A DNA stretch of 33,763 nt from an uncultured Anaerolineaceae bacterium (GTDB lineage: Bacteria > Chloroflexota > Anaerolineae > JAAYZQ01). The stretch lies in assembly GCA_964452125.1 (NCBI GenBank), contig CAYVLO010000002.1, positions 1-33,763 on the forward strand, given 5' to 3'. Below the pieces are notes generated by a model. The model saw nothing but the letters and a program-made list of their open reading frames with translations, was not told the DNA's origin and ran no database searches. Positions 22,560 through 33,562 of this stretch are shown here, one piece after another (position 1 is the stretch's first letter; the number at the start of each line of letters is the position of its first letter). The position numbers and the translations under genes were made by a program.

Positions 22560-22636
22560 TGGTCGGGGCGGCCCGATTTGAACGGGCGGCCACTTGAACC
22601 CCATTCAAGTGCGCTACCGGACTGCGCTACGCCCCG
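22560..22636 (-). tRNA. tRNA-Pro (anticodon GGG), CCA encoded
   Basis: The reverse complement folds by hand as a 77-nt cloverleaf. Acceptor CGGGGCG/CGCCCCG. D stem GCGC/GCGC. Anticodon stem CTTGA/TCAAG with loop AUGGGGU (U33, GGG, G37). T arm GCCCG-TTCAAAT-CGGGC. Discriminator A, then CCA. Confidence 0.9.
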
Positions 22637-26187: not shown

Positions 26188-26216
26188 TTGACATCCAACA
26201 CGAACCGCGTTATCAT
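26188..26216 (+). promoter_or_regulatory. promoter TTGACA-17-TATCAT heading the copper-type two-component operon (long leader)
   Basis: TTGACA at 26188-26193, 17-nt spacer, TATCAT at 26211-26216. About 355 nt upstream of the regulator start. Confidence 0.6.
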
Positions 26217-26577
26217 TTCACTGAGCAAGGTGCCGATAGGCAGTGTTTGCCCAAACTGGCCGGTGCCGATTTGCACTCCAAGGGGCAGGGCCAACCTCGG
26301 CGAGATCACAGTCAAACAAACCAGAGGGGGGATCGTCAATGCACAAACATTCCTGGCCCAAAGCTTCTTGGCCCAAGGCTTCTTGACAACTGTCTGTTGT
26401 TCTGTTCTTGGCATTGGTCGGATGGCTGTTGCGGACCCAAAGTTTGGTAGCAAACAGCGTACTGATGATCGGTGCGCTGGAGCGTTTCAGCGCCTGGGCG
26501 ATGGCGCGGCGGTTCAAGGGGTTGGCAAATGTCGCAGCCCGGGATGGAGTTGCTACCAGCTCTCATGGGAAAACACA

Positions 26578-27264
26578 GTGTCGACGACAAGAATCTTGCT
26601 GATTGACGACGAACAGAACATCCTCGACTTGGCAGGGGCCTATTTGCGCCAAGAGGGCTACGAGGTCCACACGGCTAGCGATGGACCGGGCGGACTCGAG
26701 GCAGCGCGCGTCCTCAAGCCCGATCTGATCGTCCTGGACATCATGCTGCCCGGCATGGACGGCCTGGAGCTGCTGACCCGGCTGCGGCGCGAGTCGGACG
26801 TGTACGTCATTATGCTCACGGCCAAGTCGGAGGAGACAGACAAGATCGTCGGCCTGTCGGTAGGGGCTGATGACTATCTGACCAAACCCTTTAGCCCGCG
26901 CGAGCTAGTGGCTCGCGTCAAGGCAGCGCTGCGTCGCCTCCACGCCGACGTCGGCCCGGCCGAAGCGTCCGTTCTGACCTTTCGTCGACTGCGCATCGAC
27001 GCCGGCCTCCGCCAGGTGTGGGTTGACAACGAACCGGTAGACCTGACCGCCACCGAGTTCGACCTGCTCCAGACTCTGGCTGAACATCGAGGACGGGTCC
27101 TCAGCCGCGAGCAGCTCTTGCAGCAGGTGTGGGGTCACGATTTCTACGGCGAGGAGCGGGTAGTGGACGTGCACATCGGCCACATCCGGCAGAAACTAGG
27201 CGACAGCCGATTCATCGTAACCGTGCGCGGCGTGGGCTACCATTTCGAGGATGAGGAGGTGTGA
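26578..27264 (+). CDS. OmpR/PhoB-family response regulator (CopR/CusR-like by context)
   Basis: The GTG at 26578 gives M-STTRILLIDDEQNILDL. Phospho-acceptor context LIVLDIMLPGMDG. Winged-helix segment LTATEFDLLQTLAEHRGRVLSREQLL. The ORF-track N-terminal extension is non-homologous. Confidence 0.85.
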   Translation: MSTTRILLIDDEQNILDLAGAYLRQEGYEVHTASDGPGGLEAARVLKPDLIVLDIMLPGMDGLELLTRLRRESDVYVIMLTAKSEETDKIVGLSVGADDYLTKPFSPRELVARVKAALRRLHADVGPAEASVLTFRRLRIDAGLRQVWVDNEPVDLTATEFDLLQTLAEHRGRVLSREQLLQQVWGHDFYGEERVVDVHIGHIRQKLGDSRFIVTVRGVGYHFEDEEV

Positions 27265-27266
27265 CG

Positions 27267-28394
27267 ATGCCAAGGCTCATTCGCCGGCACCTGAGCTGGA
27301 AGCTGTTTCTGTCCTACCTAGTTGTCATCCTGGTGGGTATCGTGGTCCTGGCCACGGCCGCGGAGTTGGCGGTGCCGACCGCTTTTGAGCGACACATGGC
27401 CGCCATGGCCGAGATGATGGGCGGCATGTCCATGATGCTGGAACTCGATTTGTTTAGCAACTTTCGCAATGCGGTGACCGAGGCCCTCCTCCTCGCTGGG
27501 TCGGCTGCCTTTGTCGCGGCTCTAGTTCTAAGCGTGTTCGTCAGCCGGAGAGTGGTATTGCCGGTACAGGAGATGCAGACTGCGAGCCAGCGCATCGCCG
27601 ATGGCCACTACGAGGAGCGAGTAGGTGTGCCTGGTAAGGCAGGCCGGGAGGACCTGGACGAGTTGGGCCGGCTGGCCCTCAGCTTCAACCAGATGGCCTC
27701 TCGGCTGGAAAAGACCGAAGCCCTCCGCCTGGAACTGATCGGCAACGTGGCTCACGAACTCCGTACTCCGTTGGCATCGATCCAGGGCTACATGGAAGGC
27801 CTGATCGATGGTGTTCTGCCGGCCGAAGCGGCGACGTTTCAGCGGGTATACCGCGAAGCCGATCGGCTGCAACGGCTGGTCCACGACTTGCAGGAACTCA
27901 GCCGGGTAGAGGCAGGCGCTTATGAGTTGAACCTGCGTCCCACAGCGCCAGAACGCCTCGTCGATAGCGTCGTGGCCCGCCTGGGACGCCAATTCGAGGA
28001 AAAGGGCGTGACGCTGGAGTTCGACGTGCCCCCGGATCTGCCCCTGGTGTGCGCCGACGAGGATCGCATGAGCCAGGTGCTGCTCAACCTGATGGGGAAT
28101 GCGCTGCAATACACGCCGACCGGCGGGCAGGTTTTTCTCTCGGTCCGTCGCGAAGGCAAGGGTGTACAATTCTCTGTGCAGGATACAGGCCTCGGCATCG
28201 CGCCCGAGCACATTCCGCACGTCTTTGAACGTTTCTACCGGGTGGACAGGTCGCGCTCGCGGGCCGGGGGCGGCAGTGGCATCGGCTTGACCATCGCCCG
28301 TCACTTGGTTGAAGCCCACGGCGGCCAGATTGAGGCCGCCAGCGATGGGCCAGGGCGGGGGAGCACATTCTCGTTTACCTTGCCCACAGCCTGA
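27267..28394 (+). CDS. sensor histidine kinase (two TM helices, Met-rich external loop, HAMP, HisKA, HATPase); CopS/CusS-like by context
   Basis: SD GAGGAGG at 27253-27259 and ATG at 27267. H-box HELRTPLASIQGY. N-box NLMGNALQYT. DTGLGI and GGSGIGLTIA motifs. The loop between the TM helices reads ERHMAAMAEMMGGMSMM. Confidence 0.85.
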   Translation: MPRLIRRHLSWKLFLSYLVVILVGIVVLATAAELAVPTAFERHMAAMAEMMGGMSMMLELDLFSNFRNAVTEALLLAGSAAFVAALVLSVFVSRRVVLPVQEMQTASQRIADGHYEERVGVPGKAGREDLDELGRLALSFNQMASRLEKTEALRLELIGNVAHELRTPLASIQGYMEGLIDGVLPAEAATFQRVYREADRLQRLVHDLQELSRVEAGAYELNLRPTAPERLVDSVVARLGRQFEEKGVTLEFDVPPDLPLVCADEDRMSQVLLNLMGNALQYTPTGGQVFLSVRREGKGVQFSVQDTGLGIAPEHIPHVFERFYRVDRSRSRAGGGSGIGLTIARHLVEAHGGQIEAASDGPGRGSTFSFTLPTA

Positions 28395-28414
28395 CTCCAA
28401 ACTCCTCGTTTGCC

Positions 28415-28451
28415 AGGAGCGATGTCCCGACATGAGGCATCGCTCCTTTTC
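28415..28451 (+). terminator. intrinsic terminator after the kinase gene
   Basis: AGGAGCGATG (28415-28424) pairs with CATCGCTCCT (28438-28447). Followed by TTTTCTTT. Confidence 0.7.
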
Positions 28452-28496
28452 TTTACCAAATCTTTAAGCTGGCTTCATCGTTCCTTTAACCCGCCC

Positions 28497-28505
28497 TGTT
28501 ATACT
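28497..28505 (+). promoter_or_regulatory. extended -10 promoter element TGtTATACT upstream of the SHOCT gene triplet (no good -35)
   Basis: TG at 28497-28498 and TATACT at 28500-28505. Phased CTTTA(A/C) repeats at 28451, 28462 and 28484 lie upstream of or overlap it. Confidence 0.45.
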
Positions 28506-28577
28506 ATCTTTAGCAGTGACAACAAGGGGGCAGTCAACATACTGCCCCTGGAGAAGAATGAAAGGGAGGATGACGTG

Positions 28578-28856
28578 ATGGGTGGAGGTATGATGGGTGG
28601 TTTTGGAGGCAGTTTGGGTGGCCTGGGGCTGGTCGGCGGTCTGTTCAGCACGCTCCTGACAATAGGACTGTTGGTGGGCCTGGTGTTTCTGGGCGTCTGG
28701 CTATGGCGCAGGGTCGGCACATCACAAGGAGCCGGTACCGGGACGTTTCCTCAAGAGACCCGGCAGACGCCGGTCCGCGAGATTCTACAGACCCGGTACG
28801 CTCGCGGTGAGCTGACCCGCAAAGAGTACCAGACCATGCTGCAGGACCTGGCCTGA
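28578..28856 (+). CDS. small single-pass membrane protein with a C-terminal SHOCT domain (paralog 1)
   Basis: SD AGGGAGGA and ATG at 28578. N-terminus MGGGMMGGFGGSLGG, then one TM helix, then the SHOCT-like ILQTRYARGELTRKEYQTMLQDL. Confidence 0.75.
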   Translation: MGGGMMGGFGGSLGGLGLVGGLFSTLLTIGLLVGLVFLGVWLWRRVGTSQGAGTGTFPQETRQTPVREILQTRYARGELTRKEYQTMLQDLA

Positions 28857-28922
28857 GAAAGTCTGTACGTTTGACCTCCAAAGGGTCATGCTCCTTGGAG
28901 GTCGGAGAATTGGAGGCGTTGA

Positions 28923-29285
28923 ATGAACACACGAACCATTGTTATCGGCATTGGCATCGCGCTGGTTCTGGCGGCCCTGCTGGGCGGAGGCTGGCTTCTG
29001 GGCAGCCTGTCTTGGGCCGGGGGCTGTTGTCAGGCAGGCTTTGGGATGACAGGCAACTACGGCTCCCCCTGGGGGATGCACACATTCGGTGGAGGGATAC
29101 TCATGTTTCTGTTCTGGGGTGTGATCATCGGCGGCATTGTCTTGTTGGTCGCCGGTCTGGCCCGACAGGGTACGCAGCGAGTGAACTGGGGCGAATCGCC
29201 CCTAGACATTCTCAAGCGCCGCTACGCCAGCGGCGAGATTGACCGCGAAGAGTTCGAGCGCATGAAAGAGCTGTTGTCGAGCTAG
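28923..29285 (+). CDS. two-pass membrane protein with a C-terminal SHOCT domain (paralog 2); Cys-Cys/Met/His-bearing external loop
   Basis: SD GGAGG at 28912-28916. Two TM helices flank the loop SWAGGCCQAGFGMTGNYGSPWGMHTFGGG. SHOCT-like ILKRRYASGEIDREEFERMKELL. Confidence 0.75.
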   Translation: MNTRTIVIGIGIALVLAALLGGGWLLGSLSWAGGCCQAGFGMTGNYGSPWGMHTFGGGILMFLFWGVIIGGIVLLVAGLARQGTQRVNWGESPLDILKRRYASGEIDREEFERMKELLSS

Positions 29286-29298
29286 ATGGAGGTGCGGC

Positions 29299-29529
29299 AT
29301 GATGGGTTGGGGAATGGGACTCGGCGTGCTGTTCATGGTCCTCTTCTGGGGGGCGCTGATCGCGCTGGCTGCCTGGCTGATCCGGGCGCTGTTTCCGTCA
29401 GCCGGTCAGTCACCAGCCCCGCCGACCGGACGGGACCTGAACGCCCGCGATATCCTTGATAGGCGTTTGGCGCGGGGTGAGATCACCCGGGAAGAATACG
29501 ATTTGATGAGAGAAACGCTCTCCCAATAG
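29299..29529 (+). CDS. small single-pass membrane protein with a C-terminal SHOCT domain (paralog 3)
   Basis: SD GGAGG before the ATG at 29299. MMGWGMG N-terminus, one TM helix, then ILDRRLARGEITREEYDLMRETL. Confidence 0.75.
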   Translation: MMGWGMGLGVLFMVLFWGALIALAAWLIRALFPSAGQSPAPPTGRDLNARDILDRRLARGEITREEYDLMRETLSQ

Positions 29530-29795
29530 GGGACGGTCAACAGACTGAGAACGGAAGGAAAAGGGACAAAGCGACAGCCTCTCCGAAAATGCCGGGAGTG
29601 TGGCCCAGCGCTGGCTGGATGCCAATTTGGGCCCACCAGACCAAAATCCACAACGAGGTGGCTGGAACGTCCGGTCACCCCATTGTCCTGTGTGTACAGG
29701 TGTTGGTAATCTGCCGTGTTCAACCTAAATCTAACTCCTGTTAGCCAAGGAAACCATGATTTAACCAAGCCCGGTGATACAGCAGCTAATTTGTA

Positions 29796-29804
29796 TGGTA
29801 CAAT
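29796..29804 (+). promoter_or_regulatory. extended -10 promoter element TGgTACAAT upstream of DoxX-copB
   Basis: TG at 29796-29797 and TACAAT at 29799-29804. Weak -35 (GATACA). Lies in a visibly AT-richer stretch. Confidence 0.4.
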
Positions 29805-30036
29805 AGATAATAGGGGATTGTGTGGGGCAGTATGCCGAAAGCCGTGGAAATTGTAGGGGGGGCGCGGCGGTGCGCCCTGCCAAGGGCGAATTCACACAGG
29901 ATTCGCGACATCACCTGTGTGGCCGGTTGGCTGACTTTGCTCTAGCGTAGCCTACATGGAGCGGCAGTTTACCTGGCAGAGGAAATCGATGGCCTATTTG
30001 ATAGGCCTGAAACTGATTCAAACGAGGAGGAACAAT

Positions 30037-30660
30037 ATGACAGATATTCTTGATACCAAGCAACAAAAACAAGAGATCGAACGTTTGGACGATCCGCCGG
30101 TGGCCCGGGCCCTGTTCGGCCAGGTGCGGTGGGCCTGGATCTGGCTCATTGTACGCCTGTACGTGGGCTGGCAATGGCTGACGGCCGGCTGGGGTAAGCT
30201 GGGCAGTCCAGCTTGGACCGGAGACAACGCCGGCGCCGCTATCACCGGCTTTGTCCAAGGCGCATTGGCTCAGACTTCTGGCGAACACCCCAATGTTCAG
30301 GGCTGGTACGCATGGTTCTTGCAGAACCTGGTCCTGCCCTACGCCGACGTGTGGGGCTATGTGGTGACCTTTGGCGAGATCCTGGTGGGTATCGCCCTCA
30401 TTCTGGGTATCTTTACCGGGGTGGCAGCCTTTTTCGGCGGTTTCATGAACATGAATTACCTGCTGGCCGGGACGGTGAGCACCAACCCCATGCTGTTGAT
30501 CCTGGCCGCTCTGCTGGTGTTGACTTGGAAGACGGCCGGCTGGTGGGGGCTGGACCGGTGGGTATTGCCCCTTCTGGGCACCCCGTGGCGGCCGGGCCTG
30601 ATTTTCCGCGAGGAGTCCAGGGGCAGGCGGTCGTTGACGGGACGCCCGAGAGAGAGCTGA
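30037..30660 (+). CDS. DoxX-family integral membrane protein
   Basis: SD GAGGAGG and ATG at 30037. RLYVGWQWLTAGWGKL followed by several TM helices (GEILVGIALILGIFTGVAAFFG) is typical of DoxX/DoxD-like proteins. Confidence 0.7.
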   Translation: MTDILDTKQQKQEIERLDDPPVARALFGQVRWAWIWLIVRLYVGWQWLTAGWGKLGSPAWTGDNAGAAITGFVQGALAQTSGEHPNVQGWYAWFLQNLVLPYADVWGYVVTFGEILVGIALILGIFTGVAAFFGGFMNMNYLLAGTVSTNPMLLILAALLVLTWKTAGWWGLDRWVLPLLGTPWRPGLIFREESRGRRSLTGRPRES

Positions 30661-30902
30661 ACAATCAGACTGGGAGAGGAGATCAACACGAGCAAGGACA
30701 TCAAAGACGTTGTAGGGGGCACGGCTGGACCTGTCTCATGAAAAGGCTATGGAAAGAGTGACGAAAGCCCTGAGCAAGGAAGGCTTTGGGTGACGCCGAC
30801 GCTCAGGGCCATCACGCTGGCAGTTGTCTCGTTTGTGGCCTGGCGATCCCGGCGACGGGGCATATAGTGACGTAAGTGTAAGTTTCGATGGAGGAGGACA
30901 CA

Positions 30903-33074
30903 ATGACACATGGCAATCACCACGAGCACGAGGAGAAAGCACGGCACCGCCAACACGAAGGTCAGTCCGTGCAGGACATGGAACACATGGAGCACGCTGG
31001 AGGCGAGCACACCACTCACGAGGGAGGCCACGAAGCACGCGTGGGCCAAGCTGATCACAGCGAGGAACACGCTGCCCGCGGCAAGGATCATGGTGGTCAT
31101 GGCGTGAGTCACGTTGGTCACGAAGAGATGTTCCGCCGGCGCTTTTGGGTTTCGCTGCTGCTGTCGATCCCGGTGCTGGTATTCAGCAGCGCTGTGCAGG
31201 ATTTCCTGGGCTACAGCATTCCCACTTTTCCCGGCAGCGACTGGATCACACCGGTATTTTCGGTGATCATTTTTGCCTACGGAGGGATACCGTTCCTGCA
31301 GATGGCGGTACCCGAGCTGCGCAATCGCAAGCCGGGCATGATGACCCTCATCTCCTTGGCCATCTCGGTCGCCCTCGTATACAGCCTGGCCACGCTCTTT
31401 CTGCCAGGCCAGACCAGCTTCTTCTGGGAACTGGTGACCCTCATCGACATCATGCTCTTGGGCCACTGGATCGAGATGCGCAGCGTGCGCCAGGCCTCGG
31501 GGGCTTTGGACAAGCTGGCCAAGCTCATGCCCGATACCGCCGAGCGGGTGCTGCCCGGCGGCGACACCGAGGAAGTACCGGCCACCCAATTGCAGGAGGG
31601 CGACCTGCTCCTCGTGCGGCCCGGTGCCAGCGTTCCCGCCGACGGTGAGGTGGAGAAGGGCGAGTCCGAGGTCAACGAGGCCATGATCACAGGCGAATCG
31701 AACCCAGTACTCAAAGAGCCGGGCAGCAAGGTCATCGGCGGGACGATCAACGGCGACGGCAGCCTGCGCGTGCGAGTGACGGCTACCGGCGAGGAGACGG
31801 CCCTGGCCGGCATCATGCGCCTGGTGGAAGAAGCGCAGCAGAGCAAATCCGATACGCAGATTCTGGCTGACAAGGCCGCCGGTTGGCTCTTTTACGTGGC
31901 TCTGGGGGTGGCGGCGATAACGGCCATCGCCTGGGTGATAGCCGTGGGGTTCGACGTAGACGTCATCGCCCGCGTCGCCACGGTGCTGGTCATTGCCTGC
32001 CCCCACGCTCTGGGGCTGGCGGTACCTCTGGTCGTGGCTATCACTACCTCGATGGCCGCCAGCAACGGCGTATTGGTCCGCGACCGGCTGGCGCTGGAGG
32101 AAGCGCGTGAGGTCGACACCGTTATCTTTGACAAAACCGGCACCTTGACCGAAGGGCGGTTCGGCGTGGTGGACATCGCCACCGCTAACGGCCTGCAAGA
32201 GGAAGAAGCACTGGCCTTGACCGCAGCCATAGAAGGCGACTCGGAGCACACCATCGCTCGGGGAATTCGCCGCGCCGCAGAGGAAAAGGGACTATCGCTG
32301 CCCAAGATCTCGGACTTTGAGGCGATCAAGGGCCGGGGCGTACGGGCCAGCCGCGATGGCCAGACCATATACGTTGGCGGCCCGCGCCTTCTGGAGATGC
32401 TAGAACTCGAGATACCGGAGCTTCTGGTCTCCTTTCGCAAAAAGGCCCAATCCAAGGGCCAGAGCGTGATCTATTTGGTGCAAGAGGAGCAGGTGGCGGC
32501 GGCTTTTGCTCTGGCCGACGTCATCCGCCCCGAAAGCCAGCGGGTTGTCGACCGCCTGCACGACATGGGCATAGAGGTGGCCATGCTGACGGGCGACAGC
32601 GAGGCGGTTGCCAAAGCTGTGGCTGATGAGCTGGGCATCGATCAGTACTTTGCCGAGGTCCTGCCCGAACACAAGGACCAGAAGGTGCAGCAGTTGCAGG
32701 ACAAAGGGAAACGCGTGGCCATGGTCGGCGATGGCGTGAACGACGCGCCGGCTTTAACCAGAGCCGACGTGGGCATTGCGATTGGCAGCGGCACCGACGT
32801 GGCCATCGAGTCGGCGGGCATCATCCTGGTCAGGAGCGATCCGATGGACGTGGTCAACGTCGTCGAGCTCAGCCGGGCCAGTTACCGCAAGATGATCCAG
32901 AACCTGTGGTGGGCGGCGGGCTACAACATCGTGGCCCTACCCCTGGCAGCCGGTGTGTTGGCGCCCGTGGGCATTCTGCTCTCTCCGGCCGTGGGGGCTC
33001 TGCTCATGTCGCTGAGCACGGTCATTGTGGCCATCAACGCTCAGTTGCTGCGACGGGTCCAGTTGACTGGATAG
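30903..33074 (+). CDS. copB: copper-translocating P1B-type ATPase, CopB-like (His-rich N-terminus, CPH transmembrane motif)
   Basis: SD GGAGGAGG and ATG at 30903. N-terminal stretch of about 75 aa rich in His, Glu and Met. [15 protein letters not shown] (CPH), DKTGTLT and [10 protein letters not shown] motifs. Confidence 0.9.
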
Positions 33075-33135
33075 CCGAAGGTTGCAGGCCAGAGATGAAT
33101 AGTTTATGGTATCAGAGAGAAAGGAAATGTGCATC

Positions 33136-33378
33136 ATGACGATGGGTGGCGGTTTGTTGACGGGCTTGCTTGTGCTGATTCTGCTCGTGTTGGTCATCGG
33201 CGGTGCTGCTGCAGCCGTCGTGTGGTTTGCCAGACAGGGTTCCGGTAGGCAGGGCGCGGGCCAGGGACAGGATTCTCGTACAGGCGACGATGCCCTGGAG
33301 ATCCTGCGCCAACGCTACGCCCGCGGCGAAATCGACCGCGAGGAATTCGAGCGGATGCGCGAGGAGATCAAAAGCTGA
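33136..33378 (+). CDS. small single-pass membrane protein with a C-terminal SHOCT domain (paralog 4)
   Basis: SD GAAAGGA. ATG at 33136 chosen; 33127 and 33142 are possible. MTMGGG N-terminus, one TM helix, then ILRQRYARGEIDREEFERMREEI. Confidence 0.72.
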   Translation: MTMGGGLLTGLLVLILLVLVIGGAAAAVVWFARQGSGRQGAGQGQDSRTGDDALEILRQRYARGEIDREEFERMREEIKS

Positions 33379-33412: not shown

Positions 33413-33418
33413 GTATTG

Positions 33419-33562
33419 GCCGAAAATACGCATCCGTTCTAATACCCGTCGCGCAGGGTAGGTAATCCTTTTGTGTTAATCGGGCTGACCCGCTGGTTCA
33501 TGCACGGATGACATTTTTCGGCCAGGATAGCAAAGACCGAGAATCACTCTCGGTCTTTCATT
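33419..33562 (+). ncRNA. candidate structured small RNA or riboswitch-like leader (closed by a long helix, ended by an intrinsic terminator)
   Basis: 5' arm GGCCGAAAATACGCATCCGT (33418-33437) pairs with 3' arm ACGGATGACATTTTTCGGCC (33504-33523) as 9 + 7 bp. Two internal hairpins at 33443-33460 and 33481-33492. Then a terminator at 33532-33558. No class recognised. Confidence 0.35.
33532..33562. terminator. intrinsic terminator (bidirectional-looking)
   Basis: AAAGACCGAGA (33532-33542) pairs with TCTCGGTCTTT (33548-33558). Loop ATCAC. Followed by CATTTATT. Confidence 0.7.

Follow-up and report, generated by a model that had tools for sequence, protein, structure and literature searches.

What do four small membrane proteins with a SHOCT domain do beside a copper pump? 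The question is raised by a locus in a 33,763-nucleotide stretch of DNA (the window) from an uncultured Anaerolineaceae bacterium (contig CAYVLO010000002.1). Eight genes, all on the + strand (26581-33378), encode an OmpR/PhoB-type response regulator (RR), a histidine kinase (HK), the SHOCT proteins S1, S2 and S3, a DoxX-family membrane protein, the copper ATPase CopB and a fourth SHOCT protein, S4, in the same co-oriented block that an earlier note had read from the sequence. SHOCT has been known since 2013 as a widespread domain of unknown function, and the note had suggested that the four proteins may be dedicated accessories of a copper module. We found that the locus is a variant of the two-component-controlled copper ATPase locus, with an uncharacterized, widespread accessory family added to it. 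The association of this family with copper ATPases and the regulatory architecture of the locus are solid; the mechanism is one that we infer. Positions refer to the window, and features are on the + strand unless another strand is given.

Linkage of SHOCT genes to copper ATPases

One genome per species was scanned for proteins with the design of a transmembrane (TM) helix followed by SHOCT, which gave 382 confirmed relatives, and the best 80 loci were analyzed. The homologues in these 80 loci were all 55-90 aa long with the same TM+SHOCT design, and came from at least nine phyla (Chloroflexota, proteobacterial classes, Desulfobacterota, Nitrospirota, Actinomycetota, Spirochaetota, Bacteroidota, the Candidate Phyla Radiation, and three archaeal groups). 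A P1B ATPase of the CPC or CPH type (at least 200 bits) was encoded within 10 kb in 18 of the 80 loci, and on the same strand in 13 of those 18. ATPase genes reached a density of 3.2-5.7 per 100 kb at up to 2 kb from the SHOCT gene versus 0.34-0.40 at 4-10 kb, which served as the internal control. This difference of about 10-fold bears out the enrichment of TM+SHOCT genes near copper ATPases that the earlier note had expected. Genomes carry roughly one such ATPase gene per 1-2 Mb. The counts were taken from phmmer scores; single-linkage clustering, which lumped the P-type ATPases together with unrelated proteins of about 380 aa, a family later recognized as Pyr_redox_2-type, was rejected for this purpose.

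A Pfam census of the 424 neighbours up to three genes away placed E1-E2_ATPase and Rhodanese together at the top (10 each), followed by two-component genes, UbiE-type methyltransferases, cysteine desulfurase, Pyr_redox_2, DUF302, cytochrome c, cupredoxin, DUF305, HMBD, and MerR. SHOCT and ATPase genes were 0-66 nt apart or overlapped in Pelolinea, Desulfobacterales, a Methanobacteriota archaeon, Chromatiaceae, and Alkalispirochaeta, and the spacing was also tight in L093 (compared loci are cited by their L numbers).

The reverse search started from 80 metagenomic relatives of CopB, whose flanks were often short. SHOCT open reading frames (ORFs) were nearby in 16 of the 80: 15 of 46 relatives at 62% identity or more, and 1 of 34 below. 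Cultured organisms gave the same picture. When 72,556 plasmids were searched by tblastn, 12 records matched, and the six that were inspected, which were haloarchaeal, were all metal islands. They encode P-type ATPases and HMA chaperones, thioredoxin, DUF302-SHOCT, neighbouring DoxX-SHOCT pairs, and as many as four SHOCT genes. These plasmids also encode a fusion in which a Tat-signal cupredoxin is followed by a GGGMMGPGMGRGPGMM segment, one TM helix and SHOCT. The fusion fixes the predicted topology of the SHOCT proteins as N-out/C-in and connects the TM+SHOCT design with a copper protein.

We conclude that the linkage between TM+SHOCT genes and P1B ATPases is real, non-random and cross-domain, and is either ancient or repeatedly re-created. 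It is also facultative, and is seen in about 20% of the loci in either direction. Because its genes stand next to copper pumps far above chance in both bacteria and archaea, the TM+SHOCT family is probably an overlooked component of copper defence.

The cupredoxin fusion lies at L085:5374-6117, on a Haloarcula marina plasmid, where its RefSeq label is only plastocyanin/azurin family protein; it is also present in records H10-H12.

Regulatory architecture

The 183 nt between the HK gene and S1 show stronger conservation than much of the coding DNA and hold, in this order, a terminator, four direct repeats, an extended -10 element, a second hairpin, and a ribosome-binding site. The intrinsic terminator (28416-28454), 3' of the HK gene, consists of the stem GGAGCGATG...CATCGCTCC followed by TTTTCTTT; its 15-bp stem, which precedes a T-run, shows compensatory changes at six pairs in a five-sequence alignment (RNAalifold). 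The repeats CTTTAC, CTTTAA, CTTCAT, and CTTTAA (28451-28494) are phased at exactly 11 bp and form a putative RR binding site. The extended -10 element TGTTATACT (28497-28505) is invariant or nearly so among the aligned orthologues. Farther downstream, the hairpin GGGGCAG-N8-CTGCCCC in the 5' untranslated region (5'-UTR) of S1 (28527-28548) has compensatory changes at two pairs.

The terminator, the four 11-bp repeats and the extended -10 element are conserved even in AT-rich relatives. A CTTTAC-N5-CTTTAA box stands 5' of the first SHOCT gene in L002, L004, L007, L029, L094, L099, L111, L127, L132, and L133, and it was present in all the orthologous loci inspected, including AT-rich relatives and a locus in which the SHOCT genes precede the regulator. 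Direct repeats phased at 11 bp in place of a -35 element are what OmpR/PhoB regulators classically bind. Because the phased repeats have this layout, S1-S3 would be the first regulated output of the two-component system, with the OmpR-type regulator presumably bound to the 11-bp repeats. In L127 and L132, where the SHOCT genes and copB abut as a single unit (S-S-CopB), both would share the box promoter.

We also looked for an operator common to the four intergenic regions of the window locus and found none: the CTTTAC box is only 5' of S1, and one weak reverse-strand match lies ahead of copB. Upstream of the RR gene there is a putative sigma-70-like promoter, TTGACA-17-TATCAT (26188-26216), which matches the consensus at 11 of 12 positions.

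Two-component system and gene order

The RR gene (about 26581-27264) has a GTG start (MSTTRILLIDDE...), read from the sequence, that coincides with the onset of homology to its orthologues; starts were also refined for S1, DoxX, and S4, and the MTMGGG start of S4 is backed by its orthologue in L024. The regulator contains Response_reg (112.6 bits) and Trans_reg_C (101.7 bits) domains in Pfam. The HK gene (27261-28394), whose 5' end overlaps the RR gene by 4 nt, encodes two TM helices with a short external loop, followed by HAMP, HisKA, and HATPase_c (Pfam). A Met-rich external loop had been noticed in the kinase, and it proved to be real: this His/Met-rich loop of about 27 aa (AFERHMAAMAEMMGGMSMM; AFERHMAAMAEMMGG) lies between the two TM helices and is kept in the orthologues. 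The MMGG motif is common to this loop, to the S1 and S3 tails, and to c10, a protein encoded in sister loci.

The closest relatives of the locus are in Anaerolineae metagenome-assembled genomes. L036, L001, and L092 have the gene order RR-HK-S1-S2-S3-c10-CopB, and L024 (551-5197), from a related Anaerolineae genome, has RR-HK-S1-DoxX-DUF302-S4. The window locus is therefore a mosaic of modules found separately in L024 and L036. No ATPase was encoded within 5 kb upstream or 10 kb downstream of the L024 genes, so the two-component/SHOCT/DoxX unit can exist without the pump. Throughout this clade the two-component system is a tighter partner of the SHOCT genes than CopB is, and the order HK followed by SHOCT is near-invariant regardless of the position or presence of CopB.

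The SHOCT proteins

S1 (92 aa, 28578-28856) has an MGGGMMGG tail, one TM helix, a basic stop-transfer, and SHOCT. S2 (120 aa, 28923-29285) has a first TM helix, a Gly/Met/Cys loop, a second TM helix with LMFLFW, and SHOCT, and S3 (76 aa, 29299-29529) has an MMGWGMG tail, a TM helix with FMVLFW, and SHOCT. S4 (80 aa, 33136-33378) starts 62 nt past the copB stop codon. The earlier note had recognized SHOCT in all four. The Pfam family (PF09851) confirmed it in S2 (40.6 bits), S4 (40.9 bits), and S3 (29.3 bits), which pass the gathering score of 27; S1, at 25.4 bits, is just under this score and still aligns with the other paralogues. At the DNA level, the SHOCT-coding segments of S1-S4 make up a four-copy repeat with 60-77% identity. 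At E ≤ 0.01, a Pfam scan of S1-S4 returned only SHOCT, GvpG, and DUF1707, and no PcoE/SilE or CopL-type (DUF1541) membership. NCBIfam held no model for these proteins and gave no meaningful match, and a sequence search of the PDB found no solved SHOCT relative.

A TM segment with a C-terminal SHOCT is the commonest SHOCT architecture, and the minimal TM+SHOCT family amounts to 3611 clusters at 50% identity, nearly all of 60-145 aa. We found 261 homologues of S2, as well as orthologues of S3, and the MMGG tail is retained in the S1 orthologues. The helix and SHOCT are the best-conserved parts. An AlphaFold model of S2, made from a 52-sequence alignment (mean pLDDT, the predicted local distance difference test score, 68), has helices at residues 3-32, 55-89, 93-103, and 108-119. 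The loop between the TM helices is disordered (pLDDT below 50), and the SHOCT part is a two-helix hairpin formed by 93-103 and 108-119 (pLDDT about 77-85). The CC...M...MH loop that had been singled out in S2 is partly conserved. Its CC pair was considered as a conserved ligand and rejected: Trp often replaces the second Cys, and distant members have neither.

The composition of the tail was measured in 120 non-redundant members over the 16 residues that precede the helix, with ORFs read from stop to stop; start codons chosen too far downstream had masked the enrichment of Met. The tail contains 30% Gly, 14.6% Met, 10.6% Trp, and 7.8% Phe, with the consensus MM..GWGMGFG. When 82 proteins were anchored on the conserved Trp, Met was at -4 in 79%, Phe at -1 in 70%, and Ile at +4 in 74%, with a basic residue at +12. 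This M-x3-W motif lies in the outer half of the helix and is present in S2 and S3.

A protein of 1337 aa (P0127) gave 11 separate matches to the S4 query and is a long array of SHOCT-like repeats.

CopB, DoxX, and the remainder of the window

The identities given earlier to the ATPase and to DoxX were upheld by Pfam and NCBIfam. CopB (30888-33074), a P1B-3 copper ATPase, scores 172 bits with E1-E2_ATPase and 618.3 bits with the copper ATPase model TIGR01511 (cut-off 397). It has the CPH motif at residue 371, DKTGT, and the His-rich N-terminus that had been reported, with 17 His in the first 85 residues; CxxC occurs nowhere in the protein. The DoxX-family protein (207 aa, 30037-30660) is preceded by a strong Shine-Dalgarno sequence, gaggagg, and the longer ORF chosen in the earlier note was probably over-extended. 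It scores 31.5 bits with DoxX (PF07681, gathering score 23.6) and 29.9 bits with DoxD. With the HvfX/bufferin-type model NF050144 it scores 23.6 bits, below the cut-off of 80, and no MNIO or precursor genes were found among the ORFs of the locus. The DoxX gene is 84% identical in nucleotides to that of L024.

A non-coding spacer of 507 bp (29530-30036), unique to this locus, separates S3 from DoxX and sits where the sister loci have c10. It contains an extended -10-like TGGTACAAT near 29795, and the homology of the window to L024 begins exactly at the DoxX start codon. No remnant of a c10 gene was found in the spacer. Within it, GGGGCAGTATGCC (29824-29836) complements the arm of the 5'-UTR hairpin at 28529-28548. 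The 12-mer GTCAACAnACTG occurs 5' of S1, within the UTR hairpin (28533-28544), and again 7 nt past the S3 stop codon (29536-29547); with up to one mismatch, it has three matches in the window versus 0.24 expected.

The c10 gene itself is absent from the window. In sister Anaerolineae loci it is flanked by the SHOCT genes and CopB, in the DoxX position, and in Methanosarcinales and Bathyarchaeia it adjoins SHOCT genes (examples are L036:5276-6199, L054:12199-12939, L006:171-1034, and L046:3158-3742). It encodes an exported or anchored Met-rich protein of about 200-300 aa with GMMGGGMMGG repeats and a conserved C-terminal domain, PGPNMMWN...FYGYYT.H...GMLSVNGY.GQ.WYH.WHG. The protein belongs to no Pfam family (the top match, to PepSY, is weak at 19.7 bits) and had no solved relative in a sequence search of the PDB; it is likely an uncharacterized copper-binding protein.

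Downstream of S4, an inverted repeat of 21 nt (33417-33437 and 33504-33524, 81% complementary, 66 nt apart) is followed by a strong terminator-like hairpin with 11 pairs and a T-run (33532-33558) that closes the locus. The upstream part of the window is housekeeping (trigger factor, ClpX, U32 peptidase, GH94, and M14 peptidase), and a Pfam survey of its ORFs found no further metal genes and no integrase or other island signature. An Rfam scan of the window gave a single match, outside the locus: a tRNA gene (RF00005, 61.4 bits) on the - strand at 22563-22636, about 4 kb upstream.

Sulfur-type contexts

Genes with the GWGMGFG tail in Gallionellaceae and relatives (L021, L033, L053, L061, L068, L071-L073, L076, and L084) have a recurrent non-copper context. 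It comprises an ArsR-HTH::rhodanese fusion, DsrE, Pyr_redox_2, cysteine desulfurase, a UbiE-type methyltransferase, and a trio of LolA-like, DUF1302-like, and RND-like genes. Such a context is suggestive of a connection with reactive sulfur or the envelope.

Function of the SHOCT proteins

Of the readings considered, the one with the best support makes the SHOCT proteins accessory, regulated parts of a Cu(I)/Ag(I) module. For the mechanism, we tentatively favour a Cu(I)/Ag(I) stress module in which these proteins provide membrane-tethered Met/Trp metal-binding sites, brought together by clustering of SHOCT. The block would be transcribed as two or three units. The first, RR-HK, would end at the conserved terminator, and its kinase would sense through the very short His/Met-rich external loop. 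S1-S2-S3, the second, would be expressed from the promoter in which four 11-bp repeats replace the -35 element, in the layout of OmpR/PhoB activators. The third, DoxX-CopB-S4, would follow the 507-bp spacer, and its CopB would export cytoplasmic copper. Inserted N-out/C-in, the SHOCT proteins would expose the Gly/Met/Trp tail at the outer face of the membrane. For S2 and S3, the outer half of the helix would contribute a Met and a Trp at i/i+4. On the cytoplasmic side, the SHOCT hairpin may cluster several chains, and the clustered Met/Trp tails would then form low-capacity Cu(I)/Ag(I) sites tethered at the membrane surface, which could capture or buffer metal near the HK loop and the CopB exit. 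Here we infer that copper is the signal and that the SHOCT proteins oligomerize and bind metal. Speaking for this mechanism are the linkage to P1B ATPases in both directions, the metal islands on plasmids and their cupredoxin fusion, the Met and Trp of tail and helix, the shared MMGG motif, the conserved terminator, repeats and extended -10 element, the S-S-CopB units of L127 and L132, and the published silver induction and copper-island neighbours of SHOCT genes cited below.

Several observations weigh against the favoured mechanism. The two-component system had been called copper-type in the earlier note, and the genomic context agrees, but RR scores 183.6 bits with TIGR01387 (heavy-metal regulator CusR/CopR/SilR, cut-off 279.2) and HK scores 164.8 bits with TIGR01386 (heavy-metal sensor CusS/CopS/SilS, cut-off 292.55), which the generic WalK, PnpS, and BaeS models outscore (NCBIfam). 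Since both proteins miss the curated cut-offs, the copper-type label comes from context only. Ahead of DoxX and CopB, searches of the window found no repeat box, so that co-regulation of CopB is only putative there. About 80% of the TM+SHOCT loci have no ATPase nearby. Many TM+SHOCT genes stand beside ArsR-rhodanese (16 loci), DsrE, Pyr_redox_2, cysteine desulfurase, or methyltransferase genes, and the sulfur-type context is about as frequent as the copper context. The same GWGMG tail occurs in these non-copper loci, and the family is therefore not copper-specific. The suggestion that the SHOCT proteins are dedicated to the copper module thus holds in part: their linkage to P1B ATPases is non-random in both directions, but it is facultative and sulfur contexts occur as well.

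The proteins themselves raise further doubts. Soft-metal ligands had been proposed for the external segments, and the Gly/Met/Trp-rich tails are indeed a family-wide trait, but His (2.8%) and Cys (1.3%) are at background level and the CC pair of S2 is not conserved. The tails are very short, with only two to four Met each, and S1 and S4 are divergent subtypes without M-x3-W. Gly/Trp/Phe-rich juxtamembrane segments can also be plain interfacial anchors.

The strongest alternative, although unlikely, is that the SHOCT proteins bind no metal and are single-pass regulatory or assembly subunits that dock on the short-loop HK, on CopB, or on both, with SHOCT setting the stoichiometry. SaeP and SaeQ for SaeS, MgrB for PhoQ, and phospholamban, sarcolipin, and KdpF for P-type ATPases would be the models. 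Short-loop kinases commonly require accessory membrane proteins, and the loop of HK is of this intramembrane type. The almost invariant HK-SHOCT order, kept in L024 where there is no ATPase, the spacing to ATPases in several phyla that resembles translational coupling, and the strong conservation of the helix and SHOCT all fit a docking subunit. For most family members, however, there is no two-component system nearby and no ATPase either. The terminator and a separate promoter part HK from S1, an arrangement that fits an output better than a stoichiometric co-sensor. In the cupredoxin fusion TM-SHOCT serves as the anchor of an exported domain, and the enrichment of Met and Trp in the tails would go unexplained.

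It is rather unlikely that the SHOCT proteins are general protectants of the membrane or envelope, induced by thiophilic stress (Cu, Ag, reactive sulfur, metalloids), with copper an inducer and not a ligand. The SHOCT hairpin would then lie on the inner leaflet and oligomers would stabilize the bilayer. The varied yet related contexts suit this idea (copper ATPases, rhodanese/ArsR, DsrE, Pyr_redox_2 resembling sulfide:quinone reductase, cysteine desulfurase, RND/LolA-like proteins, cytochrome c, and redoxin), as does the very large size of a family so minimal. A comparison of phage shock protein (PSP) systems also predicts that proteins are anchored to the inner leaflet by SHOCT-like domains, which would occur alongside envelope-stress systems (PMC11237479). 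In our alignments, however, the SHOCT consensus carries many charges and shows no obvious amphipathicity, and PspA, PspC, and Toastrack are absent from the top neighbour families. A strictly conserved Met/Trp pair and Met-rich tails would not be expected for lipid packing.

A more specific structure is conceivable for the S2/S3-type proteins, in which a cytoplasmic SHOCT collar would hold together a small helical bundle. The tail Met, the helix Met (-4), and the Trp (0) would each stack into rings and together make up, within the outer leaflet, a conduit or binding site for Cu(I)/Ag(I) like that of Ctr1. We regard this as a long shot. If true, it would be a new minimal metal-binding membrane pore or sensor in bacteria and archaea and the first defined role of SHOCT. 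Least credible of all is that the SHOCT genes are passengers that travel with metal-resistance islands or were duplicated locally and have no copper role: the mosaic make-up of the window locus, an insertion sequence (IS) element 3' of the SHOCT genes in L001, and haloarchaeal plasmids that share near-identical proteins would suit it, but the linkage recurs in at least nine phyla with differing gene orders, the SHOCT genes have a conserved regulated promoter dedicated to them, their protein sequences are conserved, and a domain fusion to cupredoxin exists.

The link to copper ATPases and copper-type sensing in many phyla, together with a putative conserved operator, a fixed topology, and candidate ligand residues, turns an anonymous TM+SHOCT family into a testable candidate for copper and silver defence. 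This is relevant to metal resistance islands and to the protection of the outer face of the cytoplasmic membrane. The sulfur-handling loci hint that the role may extend more widely, to soft-metal and reactive-sulfur stress.

Comparison with known systems

We found no functional study of the SHOCT family (formerly DUF2078, COG3462) in the literature, in agreement with the earlier note, which knew of no such role. The paper that described the family proposes only oligomerization and makes no mention of copper (PMC3581485). SHOCT and DUF302 genes beside copper islands were noted in passing in Cuniculiplasma and Mia14 (PMC5498576), and a SHOCT membrane protein of Haloferax was induced by 0.25 mM Ag (PMC10694973). 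The linkage to copper and two-component genes, the Gly/Met/Trp tail, and the M-x3-W motif are additions to the family description.

DoxX genes are known from accounts of copper-stress operons, among them the gig operon and the bufferin/MNIO clusters for ribosomally synthesized and post-translationally modified peptides (HvfX). The present DoxX likewise lies inside a copper-type locus, and DoxX-SHOCT pairs occur in haloarchaeal metal islands. It differs from HvfX of the bufferin clusters in its score below the HvfX cut-off and in the lack of MNIO and precursor genes from the locus.

Cu(I) is bound by Met thioethers together with Trp in CusF, and by Met at i/i+4 on an oligomeric helix in Ctr1 (MxxxM). 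The family Met at -4 from Trp resembles these motifs without homology. SaePQ, MgrB, phospholamban, sarcolipin, and KdpF share with the SHOCT proteins that they are tiny, single-pass, and encoded with the machine that they possibly modulate. They are not homologous; the regulated promoter of the SHOCT genes is a separate one, and most members lack such partners.

CopL of Staphylococcus aureus (DUF1541) binds Cu(I). It is membrane-tethered, surface-exposed, and encoded beside the His-rich P1B-3 ATPase CopB/CopX (PMC5947656, PMC10233261), features that recall the present locus. CopL is a folded lipoprotein domain, whereas the non-homologous SHOCT proteins are helix-anchored peptides with a cytoplasmic motif for which oligomerization has been proposed.

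The genes pcoE and silE have their own regulator-dependent promoter, are a first-line output, and lie beside a copper/silver two-component system, and the promoter layout of S1-S3 next to RR-HK is comparable. Their products are small, Met-rich, extracytoplasmic, disordered peptides, to which the SHOCT tails are similar in kind. There is no sequence relationship, and the SHOCT proteins differ in being membrane-anchored, with short Met/Trp rather than Met/His tails and a cytoplasmic SHOCT. They may thus be a tethered counterpart of the soluble PcoE/SilE sponges and of the CopL lipoprotein.

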